DNA of 64,000 nt from Escherichia coli (GCF_002854065.1 NZ_CP024147.1), one strand, 5' to 3'. Counted from the first letter of the stretch, positions 231-10,169 are shown. Notes: a model not told the origin generated them from the letters alone. Numbers and translations: made by a program.

Positions 231-1916
231 TTATAAAACCGCGCTAATGTCACAAATATCATCTGCCAGGTTCCAGACACCGGGTTGATGTGTAACCATA
301 ATGACGCCGCTTGTGGGTAGTTTTTCACGCACTAAACGCAGTAAGCGGATAGCCTCTTGTTCCTCAAGATGAGAGGTAGTTTCGTCAAGAAATATCCATT
401 TCGGACGTCGTAAAATTAATCGTGCCAGGGCTATACGTTGTTTTTCGCCGCTGGAAAGAATATCTCCCCAGCGATCGTGGTCATGAATACGCGCAGCCAA
501 TTTCCCCAGACCAACCTGATGCAGTACTTCGCTCAAGGATTTATCGTCTACGGGCAGGGGAAGTGCTTTACAAATAATCTCTTTCAGTAAGCCGGTTTTG
601 ATTAACGGTGTTTGTGACACATACCAACTGTCAGCAGGAGAAGAAATATCACCTTTAAACCACGGCCAGCAGTGGGATAATGTTTTAAGCAGTGTGGTTT
701 TTCCCGCACCAGAGTAGCCTTTCAGTAATAGCCATTTGCCTGGCGAAACATGAAAGTTCAAGTTCTCTAATATGATCTTATTATCAGGCGTACGAATACT
801 CGCATCAGCCACTTGTACCGCATGTTGGCAATTTTTAGGCTTATTCGTAGGGCGATGTTCGGTGAGTTGATGGAACTCATACAAGCGATCGATAACCGCA
901 GCCAGTTCAGCAAGTTCGTCATATTTATAAATAAACCAGCTTAAATTGTTCGATACCAGCATAAAGGCCTGGCGCGATTTCATCAGTCCGCCCAGATTGA
1001 TCTGTCCGCTAATAAACTGTGGCAATAACAGTAAGTAGGGAAGAACGCTAAGCGAGCGCGAATAAATATTCTGCCAGTAATCAAGCCACCGCTGACGATT
1101 CATTAAACGATGCCAGTTCTCTTTAATGGTATGAAAATTGTCGCTCAACTCCTGGCGTTGTAGAGACTCAGCATTGCTTAGCGCAATCAGTTCTGCCTGT
1201 TTATTATGCTGCACAAGATTAGTTCGAAATGTCGCTTCGCTACGTTGTTTTTCCACATTAAGCGGACGAATACGTTTACCCACCTTATGGGTAAATAAAG
1301 TTCCACCGATCACAATGAGCACGACGGTATAGACCATATACCCCTGGATATTCCATTCTGTTCCACCAACAGTGAATGAGAGCGTACCCGCGCTTTGCCA
1401 AAGAATAATGGTAAAGGTGATCAGCATGCTAAGTGACTGGATGAAGCCAAATGAAAGACTGAGCGTTTTGCTGATCAGTAAGAGAATGTCTTCAGCGATA
1501 CGTTGGTCAGGGTTATCTGTATTTTTATGCTCGCCGTAGATCTGCGTGAAGTAGTAGTTTTTATCTGCAAACCACCGATTAAGGTAGTAATCTGTTAACC
1601 ATTCGCGCCAGCGAATAGTCAGCAGTTTAATTAACCATGTTTTGTTTACTGATATTAATACAAAGATCCCCAGCAGGGCAGGGAACCAAAGGACAAGCTG
1701 CCAAAGCTTATCGGTTTCTTTCTGGCTTAGCGCATTGAAAAAATCATTATTCCAGTCGTTTAACCAGACCTGAATTTTAACCACGCCAAGGATCATGGCG
1801 AGGATAATAATGATTAACAACACTGAAGTTTTATTATTCTTACGCAGCCAAAAGGGCTTCAGCAGACAGAGATACTTTGCTATCAACATACAAAACGTAA
1901 TGGGAATGGTTATCAT
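231..1916 (-). CDS. yddA: fused permease/ATPase ABC transporter
   Basis: 561-aa ORF; N-terminal hydrophobic domain, Walker A GYSGAGKTT, ABC signature LSSGEKQRIALARL, Walker B IFLDETTS. Confidence 0.85.
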   Translation of the reverse strand: MITIPITFCMLIAKYLCLLKPFWLRKNNKTSVLLIIIILAMILGVVKIQVWLNDWNNDFFNALSQKETDKLWQLVLWFPALLGIFVLISVNKTWLIKLLTIRWREWLTDYYLNRWFADKNYYFTQIYGEHKNTDNPDQRIAEDILLLISKTLSLSFGFIQSLSMLITFTIILWQSAGTLSFTVGGTEWNIQGYMVYTVVLIVIGGTLFTHKVGKRIRPLNVEKQRSEATFRTNLVQHNKQAELIALSNAESLQRQELSDNFHTIKENWHRLMNRQRWLDYWQNIYSRSLSVLPYLLLLPQFISGQINLGGLMKSRQAFMLVSNNLSWFIYKYDELAELAAVIDRLYEFHQLTEHRPTNKPKNCQHAVQVADASIRTPDNKIILENLNFHVSPGKWLLLKGYSGAGKTTLLKTLSHCWPWFKGDISSPADSWYVSQTPLIKTGLLKEIICKALPLPVDDKSLSEVLHQVGLGKLAARIHDHDRWGDILSSGEKQRIALARLILRRPKWIFLDETTSHLEEQEAIRLLRLVREKLPTSGVIMVTHQPGVWNLADDICDISAVL

Positions 1917-2205
1917 TAGCGAAAATTGATTGTGCCATCCAATGATTATCTATGGCAATGATTTACTGATGAAATTTATTTAAGTATCATTTAACAATAT
2001 GAAATATATAGAAATATTTAATTTTCAGTGGTTATGGTTATGCTATTGATAATCAAGGGTATTGCTAATGCCCTGACGCATACCACGTATGCCAGGATTT
2101 TCGCAAGGGAAGATGATATGACGAAACACCCAACAGGAATTTATGTCGGGTGTCTTGTTAAGGCCATAAGAAGGAGGCTAAGACTGGAGCAAAGAGGGAG
2201 CGTTA

Positions 2206-3363
2206 TTAATTATTCTCCATTTGTTTTGCAACATCCATAATGTGGTAAAGCGGTACTCTGTTCTTAGCTAACTCCACCATGGCGTTCATATAAGGTACCA
2301 TGGTTGAAAAAAGGATTTTATAACCTTCGCAAAAATAAGAAACAGTCTCATTGTTTACTTTAGTAATACGATGCTTAGGACAACCGCCATTGCAGATAGG
2401 TTTATATACACATTTCAGACATTTCGCTGAAATCCGTTTTTTTTGCGCTGTCAGTTGTACACTGTTCGTCGTTTTGAGTTCAGATTTATTAATGTTTCCA
2501 ATTTTGTACTGTGGATAGACAAAATGGTCGCATTCGTAAATGTCTCCATTACTTTCAACAACCAGATTATCCTTGCAGGACTCCTGGAAAATACAACTGG
2601 TATGCCCATTCCCCAAAAAACGGCTGACAAAGCTTTCAAACTGACGGATGAAAATTTCACCCACATCGTTTTTAACCCATTGCATAAAAATGGTTGACAT
2701 AAACTTGCCATAAGCCGTGGGAGGCACAGAAAAATCAATGATGCGGAATGTGTTCTCACTATGACCACTGAAATCAATATTCGGCGTCCCGGTTTCGAGC
2801 AATTCGATAAATTGCATATGTTTACTGCCGATAGATTTTAAAAAATGATAAACCTCAAGAGGGTAATGGACATTAACGTTATTAATGACGGTTAACGTAT
2901 TAAACTCTACTTGATATGATTTCAGACGCTCGATGGCTGCTATCACTTTTGCAAAAGTACCGTTACCTGAATTACTGCGTCTGTAACGGTCATGTAGCTC
3001 CTGGGGTCCATCGATCGAGATACCAACCAGAAACTCATGTTCTTTGAGAAAGGCACACCATTCATTATTCAATAAAATGCCATTCGTTTGTAATGCATTA
3101 AAAATACGTTTTTGGCCTGCATAGCGTTGTTGATAGTGAATAACTTTACGGAAAAAATCCAGGCCAGCCAGAGTGGGTTCACCGCCTTGCCAGGTAAAAT
3201 AGACCTGATTGCCAGACGCTGCGATATATTGTTTGATGAACTCTTTCAGAGTGCTGTCATCCATCCATTTTTCATGAGTAAACTGCGACTCTTTTTCAAG
3301 GTAAAAACAGTAATCACATTTGAGATTACATTGAAAACTGTAGGGCTTGGCTGTAACGTGCAT
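2206..3363 (-). CDS. ydeM: radical-SAM anaerobic sulfatase-maturating enzyme homologue
   Basis: ORF 2206..3378; CxxxCxxC radical-SAM motif CNLKCDYC near N-terminus and C-terminal Cys clusters; start placed at second Met to give the recalled 385 aa (alternative start 3378). Confidence 0.8.
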
Positions 3364-3414
3364 CGCTATCTCGCTCAATAAGGCGGCGGAAAAATCCGCC
3401 GCATGAAGGTTTAG

Positions 3415-5097
3415 TTATTTCGCTTCGCTTAGTGCTTTCTTGATATTGTTAAACTTCTCCTGATTTACCTCGCTAAGCGGTGGCTGGCTGCTGTCGATAA
3501 ACTCTCTTACCACGCCTTGCATCTCTTTAACGACCTGCGGATTGGCGGCGGCAAGGTTATCTTTTTGCTGTAGATCCGTCAGTTTGTAGAGACCTAACTG
3601 ATTGTTTTCTACTGTATAGACAAGCGAATAATCGTTATTTCTCACCGTATAAGAGAATTGGCTTAAGTCCTCAGTGTTGGGGTTATGCGGGTAATCGTCT
3701 GACTGATGACGGACAAATTTGTGGTAATTATCCCAGAATGGAATATTTTCCTCATCAAACCAGTGAGAATAAGAGGTTATCCAGGTCAGATTTTTATGTG
3801 GCTCGCCTTGTTTCTTATCTTGCAACCAGGGCAGCAAGGAAACGCCATCCAGCTTAAGGTCTTTTGGAATGCTGATATCGGCTGCATCAAGAGCTGTCGG
3901 GTAGAAATCCATTGCGGAAATCAGCTTGTCATAATTACCGGGTTGAAGTTTTCCTTTCCACCACATAAACATTGGGGTGTGAGTACCGCCAGGATAGGTC
4001 TGACTCTTATAGCCTTTTTGCGCCCCGTTCAGCGGCAGAGGGCCATCGATAACCGCACCATTATCGGAGGTAAAGAGAATAATTGTATTGTCATACTGTC
4101 CGTTTTTCTTCAGTTGTTCGAGAATGCGTTTTACACCCTGATCAACAGAATAAACGGAAGCGTAGTAGTTATCTGCTGTTTGACTACCGGTATTAAATTG
4201 CTTCTGATATTGCTCCGGTGCAGGATTATCATTTGGCAGGTGCGGAGCATTATAAGCCAGGTAAAGCATAAAAGGCTGGTCAAGTGTTTTGGCACGATCA
4301 ACAACGCCAATTGCCTCATCGGTTAACTGATCGCTGATATAACCTTTTGCGGGGACACGTTCACGATTTTTGAACAGTGAAGGGGAGTTGTAATATGCCG
4401 TTCCTGCAGCGTGGAATCCCATAAAGTAATCAAAGCCACGGTTTTGCGGTTGCCATTCTTCCGCAGAAAATGTGGTGAAGTTGTCATGATAGTCACGTGT
4501 TTGTTTATCTTCCGGTACCGGCACATTACTGATTTTTGACAAGTGCCATTTACCTACTGCTGCAGTGTAATAACCATGATTCTGGAATAATTCAGGCAAG
4601 AAAGTTTCTGTGAGCGGAATACCATCCTGAGCATCGGTATTGGAATAGACACCAAAGCGGGCGGGAGCTCGACCGGTCATTATTGCGGCGCGGGAGGGGC
4701 CGGAAACACCGTGTGCCACATAGCCGTTAGTAAAACGTACGCCTTCATCCATTAATGAAAGGAGCGTCGGCGTTGATTTTTGTGCAGCTTCAATGGCTTT
4801 ATCTATCCCTATTTTGTAGGTATCGACAACTTCACGATTTTCCATTGTTTTTGGGTCAAAAGATCCCTTATCAAAAGGAAGTTGTCCATAACCAAGATCA
4901 TCCATGGTCAGTACGATAATATTTGGCTTTCCTTTGGTACTGTATTCAGTCGGCGTAAAGTCTGAGAAAGCAACGTTTGTTTTGGTTGCTTTCAGCTTTA
5001 CATCATCTGCCGCATGAGCAGCAAATGCAGCCATACCAGATGCCAGTATCAAAGATATCGAGGTACTTACGACACTTTTCTTTAATGCAGACTTCAT
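3415..5097 (-). CDS. ydeN: Ser-type sulfatase (secreted)
   Basis: ORF 3415..5130; signal peptide after MKSALKK; sulfatase active-site motif SGPSR (S-x-P-x-R); start chosen at Met giving 560 aa. Confidence 0.85.
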   Translation of the reverse strand: MKSALKKSVVSTSISLILASGMAAFAAHAADDVKLKATKTNVAFSDFTPTEYSTKGKPNIIVLTMDDLGYGQLPFDKGSFDPKTMENREVVDTYKIGIDKAIEAAQKSTPTLLSLMDEGVRFTNGYVAHGVSGPSRAAIMTGRAPARFGVYSNTDAQDGIPLTETFLPELFQNHGYYTAAVGKWHLSKISNVPVPEDKQTRDYHDNFTTFSAEEWQPQNRGFDYFMGFHAAGTAYYNSPSLFKNRERVPAKGYISDQLTDEAIGVVDRAKTLDQPFMLYLAYNAPHLPNDNPAPEQYQKQFNTGSQTADNYYASVYSVDQGVKRILEQLKKNGQYDNTIILFTSDNGAVIDGPLPLNGAQKGYKSQTYPGGTHTPMFMWWKGKLQPGNYDKLISAMDFYPTALDAADISIPKDLKLDGVSLLPWLQDKKQGEPHKNLTWITSYSHWFDEENIPFWDNYHKFVRHQSDDYPHNPNTEDLSQFSYTVRNNDYSLVYTVENNQLGLYKLTDLQQKDNLAAANPQVVKEMQGVVREFIDSSQPPLSEVNQEKFNNIKKALSEAK

Positions 5098-5417
5098 AAA
5101 TGTTCCTCTTCTTATTGTACTTAATTCCAAAGTAATTTTACGAAGAGAAATAAGTGGATGTAAGTGAAGTTAGTCACATAAAGAGATAGCAGATTTAGCT
5201 AAAAAAAGGGAAATAACAGTCCATAAAGCGTTGACATTACTTTCTGTTCTACTAAGTAATTTCTCGCCGATAAACAACTAATCTATTGATATTTAATAAA
5301 TTATTGTATTTTACTGACAAAATGCCGAATTGAGATCATAAATAATCATGCAATAGGTTATGCAAATGCATAAATATGTGATGAATGTCACTTATTTATT
5401 TCAATAAATATATCGCC

Positions 5418-5450
5418 TAAAAACAACGCGGGGCAAGGAATGGCTGCCCC
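5418..5450 (-). terminator. rho-independent terminator-like hairpin (GGGGCAGCCATTCCTTGCCCC then T-run on minus strand), probably the original ydeO terminator now separated from ydeO by IS1
   Basis: GC stem 5430..5450 followed on the minus strand by a T-rich tract; lies just downstream of where ydeO would have ended before IS1 insertion. Confidence 0.4.
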
Positions 5451-5520
5451 ATTTAATTCTTACGTAGCGTGTGTGGTTGACTACCCGTTAGCAAATAATC
5501 AAATAGCTAAAGCACTCATC

Positions 5521-5529
5521 GTGTTGTCC
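5521..5529. repeat. 9-bp target-site duplication GTGTTGTCC (left copy) of IS1 copy 1
   Basis: identical 9-mer at 5521..5529 and 6298..6306 immediately flanking the IS1 ends. Confidence 0.9.
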
Positions 5530-5544
5530 GGTAATGACTCCAAC

Positions 5545-6048
5545 TTATTGATAGTGTTTTATGTTCAGATAATGCCCGATGACTTTGTCATGCAGCTCCA
5601 CCGATTTTGAGAACGACAGCGACTTCCGTCCCAGCCGTGCCAGGTGCTGCCTCAGATTCAGGTTATGCCGCTCAATTCGCTGCGTATATCGCTTGCTGAT
5701 TACGTGCAGCTTTCCCTTCAGGCGGGATTCATACAGCGGCCAGCCATCCGTCATCCATATCACCACGTCAAAGGGTGACAGCAGGCTCATAAGACGCCCC
5801 AGCGTCGCCATAGTGCGTTCACCGAATACGTGCGCAACAACCGTCTTCCGGAGCCTGTCATACGCGTAAAACAGCCAGCGCTGGCGCGATTTAGCCCCGA
5901 CGTATCCCCACTGTTCGTCCATTTCCGCGCAGACGATGACGTCACTGCCCGGCTGTATGCGCGAGGTTACCGACTGCGGCCTGAGTTTTTTAAATGGCGG
6001 AAAATCGTGTTGAGGCCAACGCCCATAATGCGGGCGGTTGCCCGGCAT
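5545..6048 (-). CDS. insB: IS1 InsB frame (transposase made as InsAB' by -1 frameshift)
   Basis: 167-aa [19 protein letters not shown]... identical in both IS1 copies; overlaps insA in the -1 frame. Confidence 0.9.
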
Positions 6049-6242
6049 CCAACGCCATTCATGGCCATATCAATGATTTTCTGGTGCGTACCGGGTTGAG
6101 AAGCGGTGTAAGTGAACTGCAGTTGCCATGTTTTACGGCAGTGAGAGCAGAGATAGCGCTGATGTCCGGCAGTGCTTTTGCCGTTACGCACCACCCCGTC
6201 AGTAGCTGAACAGGAGGGACAGCTGATAGAAACAGAAGCCAC
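5967..6242 (-). CDS. insA: IS1 InsA (zinc-finger transposition inhibitor)
   Basis: 91-aa [42 protein letters not shown] with CxxC...CxxC. Confidence 0.9.
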
Positions 6243-6275
6243 TGGAGCACCTCAAAAACACCATCATACACTAAA

Positions 6276-7037
6276 TCAGTAAGTTGGCAGCATCACCGTG
6301 TTGTCCGTGTTCATACCGGTGTGCCTTTGACAACGGTACTCCTTAGAAACTCTCTTCGGACTGTTGCCGAAATGTTTGCGGAACGCATAAATAAAATAAG
6401 ATGTACTGGCATAACCACATTGTTCGGCAATTTTATTGACTGAACCTTCTACGCGTATCAAATTTTTTGCGTGCTGCATTCTGGCATCTAAAAGAATCTG
6501 TGAGAATGTCGTTTGCTCTTGCTTAAGTTTTTTCTTCAACAGGCTTTCACTGATGTACAGGCAGTCACAAATATCTTTCAGCTTCCATGGGTGCGCCAGC
6601 TTCATGTTGACAATATTTCTCACTTTCCCGGAAACGGATAGCACACCGTTAGTTAATAGTGTAATGAAACCTTTGCATGCGGCAAAAATAGACAGGCAAG
6701 AAAAAAGCAAAAGTTCTGAAAAATTATGATGATTGCGTTCTTCCGAGTTGAGATAAGCAATCATTTCATTAAGCAATCCAGTCGGTACATTAGAAGCACG
6801 TAAAAACTTCGCAGGAACAGGCACCGTCACTGTCTGGATGTTAGTGCATTGTAGATATTTTTTAATGGTATTTTCATTAAATCCGATTTCTTTAAAATGC
6901 CGCTCATAAGGTTCAAAATGCGTACGAACAGCGTTATCTACCATCAGGATCTCGCCGTCAGAGAAGGCGTAATCTTTATCTAAAATGTTAGCGTTGAAGG
7001 CATGATGAATAAATATAACAGAACAAACGAGCGACAT
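6276..7037 (-). CDS. ydeO: AraC-family acid-resistance regulator; last 6 codons and stop supplied by the IS1 terminus
   Basis: 253-aa ORF with C-terminal AraC HTH region; reading frame crosses the IS1 junction at 6297/6298 and ends ...NTVMLPTY inside the IS1 end. Confidence 0.85.
   Translation of the reverse strand: MSLVCSVIFIHHAFNANILDKDYAFSDGEILMVDNAVRTHFEPYERHFKEIGFNENTIKKYLQCTNIQTVTVPVPAKFLRASNVPTGLLNEMIAYLNSEERNHHNFSELLLFSCLSIFAACKGFITLLTNGVLSVSGKVRNIVNMKLAHPWKLKDICDCLYISESLLKKKLKQEQTTFSQILLDARMQHAKNLIRVEGSVNKIAEQCGYASTSYFIYAFRKHFGNSPKRVSKEYRCQRHTGMNTDNTVMLPTY
6298..6306. repeat. 9-bp target-site duplication GTGTTGTCC (right copy) of IS1 copy 1, inside ydeO coding sequence
   Basis: identical to 5521..5529. 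Confidence 0.9.
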
Positions 7038-7111
7038 TTTATCTCCTTAAAACAATAAAGTTTTTATCGATACTTTTTTAACATTTCATATTTATAATTT
7101 GCTGTTTATTT

Positions 7112-7309
7112 TCAGTCTTGCAAACTATTGATAATGAAATGTGTAAGATCTCTTGCAATGCGACCCATTTCTGAAATGCCCAGCTGATCAATTGCCGAAA
7201 AAATGGCTATCAACGTAAGGGTCAGTAATAAGACAACCACAATTACAAACATGATTTCTTTATAGTTGTCTCTTTGCGTGATTTTGTTTTTCACTGTGGT
7301 CGAATGCAT
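7112..7309 (-). CDS. safA: small membrane protein connecting EvgS/EvgA to PhoQ/PhoP
   Basis: 65-aa ORF with one hydrophobic helix FVIVVVLLLTLTLIAIFSAI; immediately upstream of ydeO as in the safA-ydeO operon. Confidence 0.8.
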   Translation of the reverse strand: MHSTTVKNKITQRDNYKEIMFVIVVVLLLTLTLIAIFSAIDQLGISEMGRIARDLTHFIINSLQD

Positions 7310-7420
7310 TTCAAATATGTTTATTTAGCGGATAACGTTAAAAATCGTTAATCAGTATGCTTAATATAACAGGCTGGAGAAAAGAGGAAATAGGACTGGT
7401 GCTTCAGTACTGAGCGGAGT

Positions 7421-7438
7421 TTCTTACAGCTGTAGGCA
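7421..7438. promoter_or_regulatory. EvgA-box-like 18-bp motif TTCTTACAGCTGTAGGCA upstream of safA
   Basis: near-dyad motif, nearly identical to the one at 10080..10097 upstream of ydeP; resembles recalled EvgA box TTCPyTACA...TGTAPuGAA. Confidence 0.5.
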
Positions 7439-7556
7439 GAAGTTTATATCTTATAGTATGTAGTTTAATTTAATCCATGTGAGCAAATTGCGCGATAATA
7501 GTCAATGAGGAATTCTTCTGCTGTGCGGATGACAGCAGAAGAAATGAGAAGAGGCA

Positions 7557-9836
7557 TTAATTTGATGGTTCTAATTCAACCGGAATACTTTTATAGCCAG
7601 GAATGCCACTTAATGGATCGTGGTTATCAAGTGTTAGCATGTGATTCGATTCTGGAAAATAGGTCACCAGTGAGCGGTCAGCCATAGGGTAAATGACCAC
7701 TTTTAATCTATCCATGCGGCGTGAGCTGCGCTTACCGTCTGGCGTAAGCGCAATAAGATTAACTCTTTCGCCGTTTTTTACACGGCAAATTTTAGCTTGT
7801 TTAGCACTCATAAAGACCACATCTCGTTGACCGAATACCCCTCGATAACGATCATCCATACCATAAATCGTCGTGTTGTACTGATCGTGACTGCGTACTG
7901 TCGCCATGACCAGCTTACTGTTAAACGCTGAAGAGGGATCTTCTAACAGCCCTTTGCTGGTAATGAAATTAGCCTTACCTGACGGCGTCATCCAGCGCCT
8001 TTCAGCAGCTGCATTTATCAGGTGAAAACCTCCAGGATGTCGGATGCGCTGGTTATAATCGGCGAACTCTGGCAGCACAGCTTCAATGTCATTGCGAATG
8101 CGATCATAATCTTCCACCAGATACTCCCAGGCTACCACGCTCTGGGGTAGTGCTGCCTGCGCGATTCCCGCGACCACTGCACACTCTGATTTCAGCATTA
8201 CATCGGCGGGTTTTAACACGCCACGCGAGGCATGAATCATCGACATTGAATCCTCAACGGTTACCGCCTGCGCACCGCTTTTTTGCATGTCAATCTCGCT
8301 ACGTCCCAGAACCGGCAGAATATAGCTATGCCGTGCGGTCAGCAGATGAGAGCGGTTAAGCTTAGTGGCTACGTGTACCGCCAGATCTAATTGCGTTAAC
8401 GGTACAGCGCTCGCTTCCCGATCTGGCATTGCCAGTGCAAAGTTGCCCCCCATGCAGATCAATGCTCGAGCCTGCCCTGAACATATTGCTTGCATGCTGG
8501 CAATTGCAGCATGTCCAGGTGCTTGAGGTGGTGTGAAGCCATAGCGCTCACCCAGGCGAGCCAGAAACTCTGCAGACGGTTTCTCGGTGATACCGACGGT
8601 TCGGTCGCCCTGTACATTAGAGTGGCCACGTAGTGGGCAGATACCCGCACCAGGCTTGCCAATGTTACCTTTCATCAACAGCAGATTGACCAGTTGCTGT
8701 ACATTCTGGGTACCATGTTCGTGCTGAGTGATCCCCATTCCGTAACAGATAATGGTGCGTTCGGCAGCGGCATATGCATCAGCCAGTTCGGCGATTTGTG
8801 TCTGACTTAGTCCAGAAATACGTTCGATATCTTTCCACTCGGAATTGAGAACGTCACGGCGTAGCTCGTCAAAGCCGACGGTATGCGTTTGAATAAATTC
8901 GTCATCCAGCAATGAGGGCCGACCTGCGGCACTTGCAGCATCATCGCGCTCAATTAACAGGCGCATCATCCCCTTGAGCAACGCCATATCGCCACCAATG
9001 CGCACGTTGTAGTAGGCACTGGCCAACTGAGTCTCAGAGTTCGTCAGCATTTCAAACGGGTTTTGCGGTGCGGTAAATCGCTCCAGGCCACGTTCCTGTA
9101 GAGGATTGATGGCGATCATTTTCGCTCCCCGTTTCACTAAAGCGCGCAACGAAGTCAGCATGCGAGGGTGGTTTGTACCAGGGTTATGCCCAATGCAAAT
9201 GACTAAATCGCACTTCTCAAAGTCTTCCAGCAACACGGTCCCTTTACCTACACCGATACTCGCTGCCAAACCCACGCTTGTCGGTTCATGGCACATGTTG
9301 GAGCAGTCGGGAAAGTTATTGCTCCCGTATTCACGGGCAAAAAGCTGATAAAGAAAGGCAGCTTCATTGGAAGTGCGGCCCGAAGTATAGAATTCAACCT
9401 GATTGGGATCACTATAGCTTTGAAGGCGTGCGCCAATTTCATTGAAAGCTTGTTGCCAGCTTAATGGCTTGTAACAGTCGCTGACGGCATCATATTTCAA
9501 AGGCTGAGTGAGTCGCCCCGCAGCCTCAAGCTCGTGGTCTCCCCAGGTAAGTAATGATTGAACCGTATTCTCAGCAAAGAAAGAGGCGTTTACCTGCTTA
9601 TCCGTGACTTCCCAGGCGATTGCTTTTGCGCCGTTTTCACAAATGTCGAATGACGCACTGTGCTTAGGATCTGGCCATGCACAACCCGGACAGTCAAAGC
9701 CCTCTGGCTTATTCATGTCAAACATGGCAATAACATCCTGGCGTATATCCATCTGCTTACGTACTGCATTCGCTACGGATTTAACAGCACCCCAACCACC
9801 GGCAGCACCCTGGTAGGATTCAATTTTTTTCTTCAT
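7557..9836 (-). CDS. ydeP: molybdopterin-oxidoreductase-like acid-resistance protein
   Basis: 759-aa ORF; N-terminal Cys cluster CPGCAWPDP and formate-dehydrogenase-like composition. Confidence 0.85.
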
Positions 9837-10079
9837 CTACTTATCCTGTGTGGAAATGAATTATTAGGATTTGTAATAGCGATGATGCACAGTACATACA
9901 AAGGGATTATCGCCAACATGGATATATAAGAGTAGGGGACTACTCTCTTTCTATTTTTAATCTATTATCGTTAAACCATAGATTAAATACGATAAGGTAA
10001 GCATCATCTCTCATAGTGTTTAAATTAACATATTTTTCAATATAAAAAATAAGACTCTGGCTTCAATTGTGCGCGGATT

Positions 10080-10097
10080 TTCTTACAGGTGTAGGAT
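10080..10097. promoter_or_regulatory. EvgA-box-like 18-bp motif TTCTTACAGGTGTAGGAT upstream of ydeP
   Basis: shares TTCTTACAG-N-TGTAGG with the safA upstream motif; embedded between GCGCGGAT/ATCCGCGC inverted repeats. Confidence 0.5.
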
Positions 10098-10169
10098 AAT
10101 AGCTTTCACAAAATAATTATCCGCGCAATTTTCGTGAATGGAGCGCATAGACTAAGGTCAAAATCACAA

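Follow-up and report, generated by a model that had tools for sequence, protein, structure and literature searches.

The question raised by the ydeN-ydeM locus of Escherichia coli is whether these two adjacent genes provide an active sulfatase and, if so, which sulfate ester this enzyme would cleave. The locus is found on the minus strand at positions 2206–5097 of a 64,000-nucleotide (nt) stretch of an E. coli genome (NZ_CP024147.1). The whole stretch is termed here the window, and positions refer to it unless another sequence is named. A sequence-only reading had described the locus as a cryptic Ser-type sulfatase with its dedicated radical-SAM maturase, a self-contained, secreted system whose substrate is not evident. 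The analysis presented here indicates that ydeN-ydeM is very probably an operon that forms a two-gene module for making an active periplasmic sulfatase without oxygen. The locus is the known ydeN-ydeM pair of E. coli, and the earlier reading is correct but ordinary. The pair has long been annotated in thousands of E. coli genomes and thus is not new.

Position 5097 is the first base of the YdeN ATG (the protein begins MKSALKK) and the ydeM stop codon ends at position 2206, so that the span assigned at the outset is exact. Open reading frame (ORF) calling of the window gives two minus-strand frames here, with maximal extents of 3415–5130 and 2206–3378. The ydeN coding sequence (3415–5097) encodes a predicted 560 amino acid (aa) precursor of a Ser-type S1 (formylglycine-dependent) sulfatase, assigned from the ORF and Pfam. 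The ydeM coding sequence (2206–3363) encodes a predicted 385-aa radical-SAM/SPASM anaerobic sulfatase-maturating enzyme (anSME), assigned from its matches to TIGR03942 and to the structure 4K36. ydeM is downstream of ydeN on the same strand, with a 51-nt spacer between them. The gene order, yddA-ydeM-ydeN-ydeO-safA-ydeP, is that of E. coli K-12 MG1655, where the RefSeq labels are “sulfatase-like hydrolase/transferase” (ydeN) and “anaerobic sulfatase maturase” (ydeM). The same sulfatase and maturase annotation is found across E. coli genomes, and a 101-nt fragment of ydeM is present in 5342 of the 5426 complete E. coli genomes (98%). Compared with K-12 MG1655, YdeN is identical at 559 of 560 residues, the sole change being the conservative D295E, and YdeM is identical at 379 of 385 residues (6 differences).

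YdeN displays the full 12-residue sulfatase motif, SGPSRAAIMTGR, at codons 132–143 (4669–4704). The motif includes the S-x-P-x-R signature cited in the sequence-only reading, which is present as SGPSR at residues 132–136 (codons at 4704–4690). Cysteine is absent from the entire YdeN sequence; thus Ser132 is the sole possible source of formylglycine. The pattern [VM]SGPSRAAI[ML]T[GA]R is found in all ten YdeN orthologues fetched, and all are Ser-type. The Pfam family PF00884 (Sulfatase) matches residues 58–408 over its whole profile (1–301) with 238.6 bits (E = 1.3e-70; gathering score 25).

Residue conservation was followed in an alignment of 34 sequences, 10 from the YdeN clade (70–100% identity) and 24 relatives (30–40%). 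D66 and D67 (MDDLGYG), P134, R136, H185 (GKWH), H286 (APHLP), D345 and N346 (SDNG) and K364 show no variation, and K183 is almost invariant (≥90% conserved). By comparison with arylsulfatase A and the Pseudomonas arylsulfatase, we take these columns to hold the residues with which S1 enzymes coordinate the metal, bind the sulfate and carry out acid/base catalysis. An AlphaFold2 model of YdeN built on this alignment has a predicted local distance difference test score (pLDDT) of 89.5 and a predicted template modelling (TM) score of 0.89; residues 1–48 (signal peptide and linker) are disordered in it (pLDDT <50). A Foldseek search with the model gives 426 Protein Data Bank (PDB) matches at E ≤0.001, and the best 50 are all S1 sulfatases. 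The best structural matches have E = 1e-35 and TM scores of 0.80–0.82 normalised to the target. YdeN appears to have every property of a Ser-type S1 sulfatase that a sequence can display.

Codons 1–29 of ydeN (5011–5097) encode a predicted Sec-type signal peptide, MKSALKKSVVSTSISLILASGMAAFAAHA, with the cleavage predicted before A30. By inspection, the N-terminus (MKSALKKSVVSTSISLILASGMAAFAAHA/ADD) has a basic n-region (K2, K6, K7), a 19-residue hydrophobic core and an A-H-A site (AHA/A at 27–30), and the region has no lipobox Cys and no twin-Arg. The export signal reported earlier is therefore present, but the word “secreted” does not hold, since a Sec peptide without a lipobox predicts a periplasmic protein.

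The partner protein matches the TIGR03942 “anaerobic sulfatase maturase” equivalog with 498.3 bits (cut-off 349.45, E = 1.3e-149), residues 2–364 of YdeM covering positions 1–362 of the 363 in the profile. NF010321, the second-best sulfatase-maturase model, gives 253 bits, under its cut-off of 441. The structure of the Clostridium perfringens anSME (anSMEcpe, 4K36) aligns with YdeM residues 4–359 (E = 1e-62). The CxxxCxxC motif named at first sight is found as C12-NLK-C16-DY-C19 (codons 12–19, 3307–3330); these predicted ligands of the radical-SAM [4Fe-4S] cluster align with C15, C19 and C22 of anSMEcpe. The SPASM region (codons 257–345, 2329–2595, from a Pfam SPASM match) holds the predicted ligands of two auxiliary [4Fe-4S] clusters. 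Eight of the 12 cysteines of YdeM are here (C257, C263, C278, C315, C318, C324, C328 and C345). They align one-to-one with those of 4K36, and D279, directly after C278, aligns with the Asp that follows the third cysteine. From the published structure of anSMEcpe, we take these cysteines to be auxiliary-cluster ligands and the Asp to be the proposed catalytic base. The cluster cysteines and D279 are invariant in seven YdeM orthologues, down to 53% identity. Orthologues all start with MH[IVF]T.KP and YdeM begins MHVTAKP; thus the ydeM start is the ATG at 3363 and not the TTG at 3378. YdeM appears to display each anSME character that can be looked for in this way.

YdeN orthologues at least 70% identical to the E. 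coli protein are found, beyond Escherichia, in a patchy set of bacteria at 70–84% identity: Leminorella, Salmonella, Citrobacter, Yersinia, Proteus, Aeromonas, Shewanella, Iodobacter and Anaerobiospirillum or Anaerobiospirillum-like gut bacteria. Six contexts were examined, those in Y. pestis, A. veronii, an Anaerobiospirillum-like metagenome-assembled genome (MAG), Iodobacter, Salmonella, and that of a multi-species Enterobacterales protein. In each of them the sulfatase gene is followed directly, on the same strand, by a gene for a radical-SAM protein of 386–392 aa. The flanks differ in the six contexts and often are mobile in character, with insertion sequence (IS) elements, a Y1 transposase, integrases, resolvases and phage-like genes. 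Nothing else is conserved around the pair in these contexts, and no small peptide gene is conserved beside the ydeM orthologues. Because the sulfatase-maturase order is kept amid unrelated and often mobile flanks, the pair behaves as a mobile two-gene cassette. The synteny is good comparative evidence that YdeN and YdeM are likely to be functionally coupled. The same order in six other taxa with unrelated flanks strengthens the term “dedicated” for the maturase, and the pair may be the self-contained system it was said to be.

Two Enterobacterales contigs (L017 and L019) show the cassette beside a phage-type integrase gene and small phage-like genes, and a third (L018) shows it beside resolvase and recombinase genes (L017–L019, positions 7563–12877). 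This suggests that these cassettes are carried on integrative elements.

A GC-rich hairpin, GCGGCGGA-UUUU-UCCGCCGC (3383–3402, minus strand), is found in the spacer between the ydeN stop codon (3415–3417) and the ydeM ATG (3361–3363). When the spacer is folded alone, the hairpin has a minimum free energy of −18.7 kcal/mol (z = −3.10) and none of 200 shuffled sequences is as good; with 76 nt of flank z is only −1.1, so that the value is significant for the isolated spacer only. As it lacks a following U-run, the terminator scan does not score it as an intrinsic terminator. Each of the other loci compared also has a hairpin at this position, of unrelated sequence in Yersinia (z = −3.1), Aeromonas (z = −4.9) and Iodobacter (z = −4.5), and a weaker one in Salmonella (z = −1.7). 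An Rfam search over positions 1900–5600 shows nothing that reaches its gathering score. An isrK-like match on the opposite strand over the hairpin (20 bits vs 50, E = 0.25) was treated as chance. ydeN has a strong Shine-Dalgarno sequence, AAGAGG (5105–5110), and ydeM a poor ribosome-binding site, with only GAGCGAG before the ATG. The hairpin and the weak ydeM site may together set a high ratio of sulfatase to maturase, and partial termination or protection of the 3′ end of the upstream message could be the route.

In E. coli, ydeM is co-transcribed with ydeN, and ydeMN is raised in an araC mutant (PMC10878103). Binding of AraC upstream of ydeN is stated from chromatin immunoprecipitation (PMC3738151, PMC10878103), and it requires arabinose (PMC3738151). 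A search for the AraC half-site TAGCN7TCCATA with up to three mismatches gives 419 matches vs 429 expected by chance; thus the sequence alone does not place the AraC site in the region ahead of ydeN. Five matches with one mismatch to the CRP consensus TGTGAN6TCACA are found in the window, and two of them are in the spacer of about 433 bp upstream of ydeN. The distal one, TGTGATGAATGTCACT (5377–5392), has its centre about 287 bp before the ydeN ATG. Its version in K-12 and enterotoxigenic E. coli (ETEC), TGTGATGGATGTCACT, is a peak in CRP chromatin immunoprecipitation sequencing in ETEC and is assigned to ydeN (PMC4287617). The distal site is also a Footprint-seq site with a dissociation constant of ~1.8 nM (PMC12871828), and ydeN is on the list of CRP targets from genomic systematic evolution of ligands by exponential enrichment (PMC3105977). 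The predicted proximal site, TGTGACTAACTTCACT (5163–5178), overlaps a candidate −35 (CTTACA, 5159–5164), with a candidate −10 (TAAAAT) at 5135–5140; the number of promoter-like hexamers in the scan equals chance. The literature search gave no experimental report on this proximal site. Both sites are retained in K-12 MG1655, where the spacer has 13 differences. Upstream of the orthologues in Yersinia, Aeromonas, Iodobacter, Salmonella and the MAG no CRP site with one mismatch or less was found, and matches with two are at chance level; CRP control thus looks specific to E. coli.

At neutral pH ydeN is translated; at pH 4.4 it falls about 40-fold and, together with mal, xyl and tre genes, belongs to the group with the strongest down-regulation, in mRNA as well as in ribosome footprints (PMC10746267). 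The YdeN protein has been detected in the proteome of anaerobic O157 cultures (PMC3936929). In view of this expression and of the CRP and AraC regulation in the literature, “cryptic” does not mean silent: the word fits the substrate, but not a gene that is translated, whose protein has been detected and for which a CRP site has been mapped.

The ydeN-ydeM module would act as follows. Transcription would begin upstream of ydeN under CRP control and, according to the literature, be repressed by arabinose-bound AraC. One transcript would serve both genes, the hairpin and the weak ribosome-binding site probably holding the maturase below the sulfatase. In the cytoplasm, YdeM would carry one radical-SAM [4Fe-4S] cluster (C12/C16/C19) and two auxiliary SPASM clusters. 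It would cleave S-adenosylmethionine and take the C-beta hydrogen from Ser132 in the unfolded SGPSRAAIMTGR segment of pre-YdeN; with D279 as the base, Ser132 would be oxidised to C-alpha-formylglycine. This part of the proposal is transferred by analogy from AtsB of Klebsiella and from anSMEcpe. Pre-YdeN would then be exported by Sec and cut after Ala29, and YdeN would fold around a divalent metal held by D66, D67, D345 and N346. The hydrated formylglycine would attack the sulfate ester, aided by R136, K183, H185, H286 and K364.

Several points weigh against an active, YdeM-dependent sulfatase. The literature search gave no sulfatase activity, no formylglycine and no structure for YdeN, and no assay or activity of YdeM. 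One paper calls sulfatase maturation in E. coli “still not completely understood” and treats aslB and ydeM as no more than putative maturase genes (PMC8379841). The maturase gene is placed behind a hairpin and has a weak ribosome-binding site. ydeM shows 6 nonsynonymous and 6 synonymous differences from K-12 and may be under weaker constraint than ydeN. A second YdeN-like Ser-type sulfatase of E. coli, P0066 (565 aa, 77% identical, 303 member sequences), has no maturase gene within 13.5 kb; thus adjacency is not obligatory. The substrate proposed below, moreover, leans on relatives of only 43–45% identity.

The P0066 gene is directly behind an OmpC-type porin gene on two E. coli contigs (L004, positions 2615–5544, and L005) and adjoins an IS110-family transposase gene. 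Small ORFs downstream of it on L004 were considered as a fragmented maturase and rejected, as a tblastn search with YdeM finds nothing there. A porin gene is also upstream of the Aeromonas cassette, with a small ORF and an IS transposase gene between.

P0066, having no maturase of its own, would need one in trans, and YdeM may then not be specific for YdeN. It could be a general maturase for other E. coli sulfatases, or a SPASM peptide modifier with another target. It is known that anSMEs accept both Cys and Ser substrates, which would suit the former role, and YdeM has sizeable sub-threshold scores with peptide-maturase models (DynA 215 bits, DarW 162 and YhhB 151), which would suit the latter. 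The peptide-maturase matches, however, appear to represent the shared fold, as none comes near its cut-off and the sulfatase-maturase equivalog alone is passed. That the gene strictly adjoins one for a YdeN orthologue in six further taxa, with no other conserved neighbour and no conserved small peptide gene, also argues against a YdeM of wider or different function, which is rather unlikely.

The pattern of change relative to K-12 bears on a different alternative. ydeN has 8 synonymous changes and 1 conservative nonsynonymous change, and this ratio indicates strong purifying selection. In ydeM, 5 nonsynonymous and 0 synonymous changes are found within 61 nt (2408–2468, codons 299–319), and these five surround the SPASM ligands C315 and C318. 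They mark the ydeM allele of this strain as a rare one: a 101-nt stretch over the patch (2390–2490) has a 100% match in 2 of 5426 complete E. coli genomes, most showing 95–96%. The exact YdeM protein of this strain is frequent in public assemblies. The substitutions are in columns that vary among orthologues. The cluster may represent either relaxed constraint or adaptation.

The low G+C content of the pair (ydeN 44%, ydeM 39%, window 48%) fits a horizontal origin. The pair could on this basis be a decaying acquisition, in which YdeN is made but Ser132 stays unmodified and there is no active enzyme in E. coli. The mobility of the cassette in other taxa, the weak ydeM ribosome-binding site behind the hairpin, the elevated nonsynonymous change in ydeM, a ydeM split by IS2 in at least one strain (H7) and the lack of reported activity would all be in accordance with decay. 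Both frames are intact here, however, and all catalytic and cluster residues are kept. The strong purifying selection on ydeN, the presence of the ydeM fragment in nearly all complete genomes and the position of the ydeM substitutions in variable columns speak for maintenance, as do the specific regulation by CRP and AraC and a detectable YdeN protein. Decay of the pair is thus considered unlikely, and an active sulfatase is retained as the preferred interpretation.

The substrate is not readable from the sequence, as was held before, but related proteins narrow the choice. The best PDB sequence matches of YdeN are S1_19 carrageenan galactose-4-sulfate sulfatases (E = 3e-52 to 1e-42); an S1_16 kappa-carrageenan sulfatase (9fo1) gives E = 5e-39, and the S1_11 N-acetylglucosamine (GlcNAc)-6-sulfatases 7p24 (BT3177) and 5g2v (BT4656) give 7e-33 and 3e-30. 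Among the best 50 of the 426 Foldseek matches, S1_19 enzymes have ranks 1–15, an S1_16 enzyme rank 16, the S1_16 enzyme BT3796 of gut Bacteroides rank 30, and S1_11 enzymes ranks 37–39 (5g2v and 7p24 at 37 and 39). YdeN is thus no closer to S1_11 than to other subfamilies by sequence or by fold. The S1_19 proteins of the PDB score 181 bits with YdeN vs 380–450 bits for uncharacterised relatives. The S-subsite residues are common to YdeN and S1_19; the C-terminal subdomain of YdeN aligns weakly with S1_19 (1.4 bits), and YdeN has a conserved extra segment at residues 82–108.

Relatives of YdeN were searched for among 1.8 billion cluster representatives. The YdeN clade is compact, with very few 50% clusters. 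After a gap come the next relatives at 35–45% identity, which are mostly Cys-type and share the N-terminal insertion. The neighbourhoods of the four closest non-orthologous relatives (P0122–P0125) were compared, and chondroitin-sulfate context is found in two of the three that are informative. P0122, from Plesiomonas shigelloides, is 43% identical to YdeN over nearly the full length. Its gene adjoins those for an anSME and an outer-membrane channel; the chondroitin/dermatan sulfate 4-O-endosulfatase 6J66 has an orthologue encoded beside it (E = 2e-289), and a KdgM-type porin is encoded there as well. The P0122 locus also has genes for an Aga-type N-acetylgalactosamine (GalNAc) phosphotransferase system and the tagatose-bisphosphate pathway, and for a DUF2264 protein that resembles recently solved glucuronate dehydratases (9O4U, 9NWF). 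P0125, a metagenome-assembled relative 45% identical over nearly the full length, has the gene for a homologue of chondroitinase ABC (2Q1F, E = 2e-148) on one side and that for another PL8 lyase on the other. The gene for P0123 (41% identity) adjoins a GH29 fucosidase gene, and the contig with P0124 (42% identity) is too short to inform. The P. shigelloides contig that holds P0122 (L012, positions 4115–14348) appears as a whole to be a locus for utilisation of chondroitin sulfate and GalNAc.

From the chondroitin loci of the relatives, together with the galactose-4-sulfatases among the structural neighbours, the best guess for the target of YdeN is O-sulfated GalNAc or galactose. A tentative proposal is that such a sugar is cleaved on a host- or diet-derived glycan fragment that reaches the periplasm. 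ydeN-ydeM itself has no glycan-degrading genes as neighbours.

It has been proposed that YdeN is a mucin-type GlcNAc-6-O-sulfatase, on the basis of 33% similarity to BT4656 of Bacteroides thetaiotaomicron, and in mouse-gut-adapted E. coli ydeM rose with nagABE and galP (PMC10878103). BT4656 and BT3177 are indeed detectable homologues of YdeN. Their S1_11 subfamily is, however, far from being the best sequence match (E = 3e-30 to 7e-33 vs 3e-52 for S1_19), and its structures rank after those of S1_19, S1_16 and several others. The closest non-orthologous relatives also point to chondroitin-sulfate loci and not to GlcNAc or mucin loci. A GlcNAc-6-sulfate target has a low probability on this evidence.

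YdeN could also use its formylglycine to hydrolyse esters other than those of sulfated carbohydrates (phosphonate monoesters, phosphodiesters or aryl-sulfonate-related esters). Weak matches to Pfam Phosphodiest (E = 1e-7) and PehA (67 bits) would suit this, as would the effect of FD&C Red 40, a sulfonated azo dye that induced ydeN and no other gene (PMC10653809). Such an activity is very improbable, as the PehA cut-off is 900 bits, deletion of ydeN left depletion of the dye unchanged (PMC10653809), and the structural neighbours at ranks 1–16 whose substrate is named in the PDB entry are all carbohydrate sulfatases.

The YdeN clade is a tight group, and its maturase gene moves along with it in a mobile two-gene cassette. 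A broader scheme, put forward as a possibility of modest likelihood, is that the group would be uncharacterised periplasmic sulfatases for O-sulfated GalNAc or galactose that other gut microbes free from chondroitin sulfate or mucin, with the E. coli genes turned on by CRP when preferred sugars are lacking and turned off through AraC by the plant sugar arabinose. If this is true, E. coli and other enteric Proteobacteria share directly in scavenging sulfated host glycans.

For the annotation itself little is gained, as the operon has long been annotated in K-12. The substrate, if found, would fill a remaining functional gap in the E. coli genome and would tell whether E. coli itself desulfates glycans of the host in the gut, which is commonly regarded as a function of Bacteroides. 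The modest additions made here are the mobile cassette, the conserved hairpin and the position of a Ser-type clade amid Cys-type relatives that come from chondroitin loci. The cassette, the hairpin and the relatives in chondroitin loci leave a candidate list shorter than “any sulfate ester”.

Two neighbouring features of the window may be mentioned. Unlike K-12, this strain carries an IS1 within the final codons of ydeO. The element, 433 bp upstream of ydeN, is complete (768 bp, 5530–6297) and is flanked by a 9-bp target duplication, GTGTTGTCC (5521–5529 and 6298–6306). It alters the C-terminus of YdeO from ...GNTMNALAI to ...DNTVMLPTY, and the length is still 253 aa. The ydeO terminator (5429–5451) and the entire ydeN upstream spacer are intact on the ydeN side of the IS1. 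E. coli strain 6EVA matches across the same ydeN-IS1-ydeO junction and apparently has an IS1 at the same place. A second IS1 copy is present at 20454–21221. Taken with an identity of 98.7% to K-12, it suggests that the strain belongs to an IS1-rich lineage, possibly Shigella, outside the E. coli genome collection. The other feature is a 40-codon ORF on the plus strand (2118–2240, beginning MTKHPTGIYVGCLV), which is the annotated small protein YneP. It is antisense to ydeM and overlaps the last 35 nt of that gene.

Comparison with known systems places the pair as follows. The S1_19 set is represented by Pseudoalteromonas PsS1_19A/B (6B0J, 6BIA, 6PSM) and Zobellia ZgCgsA (9HH2), which have the S-subsite residues of YdeN and 26–28% identity to it over the whole structure. 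These enzymes are Cys-type, about 100 residues shorter, and without the insertion at YdeN residues 82–108. The residues that form an aromatic shelf at the −1 subsite of S1_19B (F103, Y455, Y458; PMC6923384) fall in parts that align poorly with YdeN. The S1_19 enzymes come from marine carrageenan loci, in contrast to the setting of ydeN-ydeM. Judged by these sequence characters (Ser-type, longer, with an extra segment), YdeN is not a typical S1_19 enzyme. P0122 and P0125 share the N-terminal insertion of YdeN, but are Cys-type, and their place in chondroitin-sulfate loci has no counterpart beside ydeN-ydeM.

YdeM aligns end-to-end with anSMEcpe of C. perfringens (PDB 4K36–4K39), with the CxxxCxxC motif, the eight auxiliary cysteines and the Asp conserved. 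The partner sulfatase of anSMEcpe is Cys-type, whereas that of YdeM is Ser-type.

The Klebsiella pneumoniae AtsA/AtsB system is a Ser-type arylsulfatase with an iron-sulfur maturase. YdeN is not close to the arylsulfatase models: NF010322, the best-scoring of these in NCBIfam, gives 124 bits, well under the cut-off of 481. Gene order differs as well, since the sulfatase gene is first in ydeN-ydeM, while in Klebsiella atsB is before atsA. Control is by CRP and AraC for ydeN-ydeM and by sulfur starvation for ats. The common plan of the two systems, as AtsA/AtsB is generally described, is a Ser-type sulfatase with a Sec signal and a cytoplasmic radical-SAM/SPASM maturase encoded by the adjacent gene, with a modification that takes place before export and does not use oxygen; ydeN-ydeM would likewise follow this plan.

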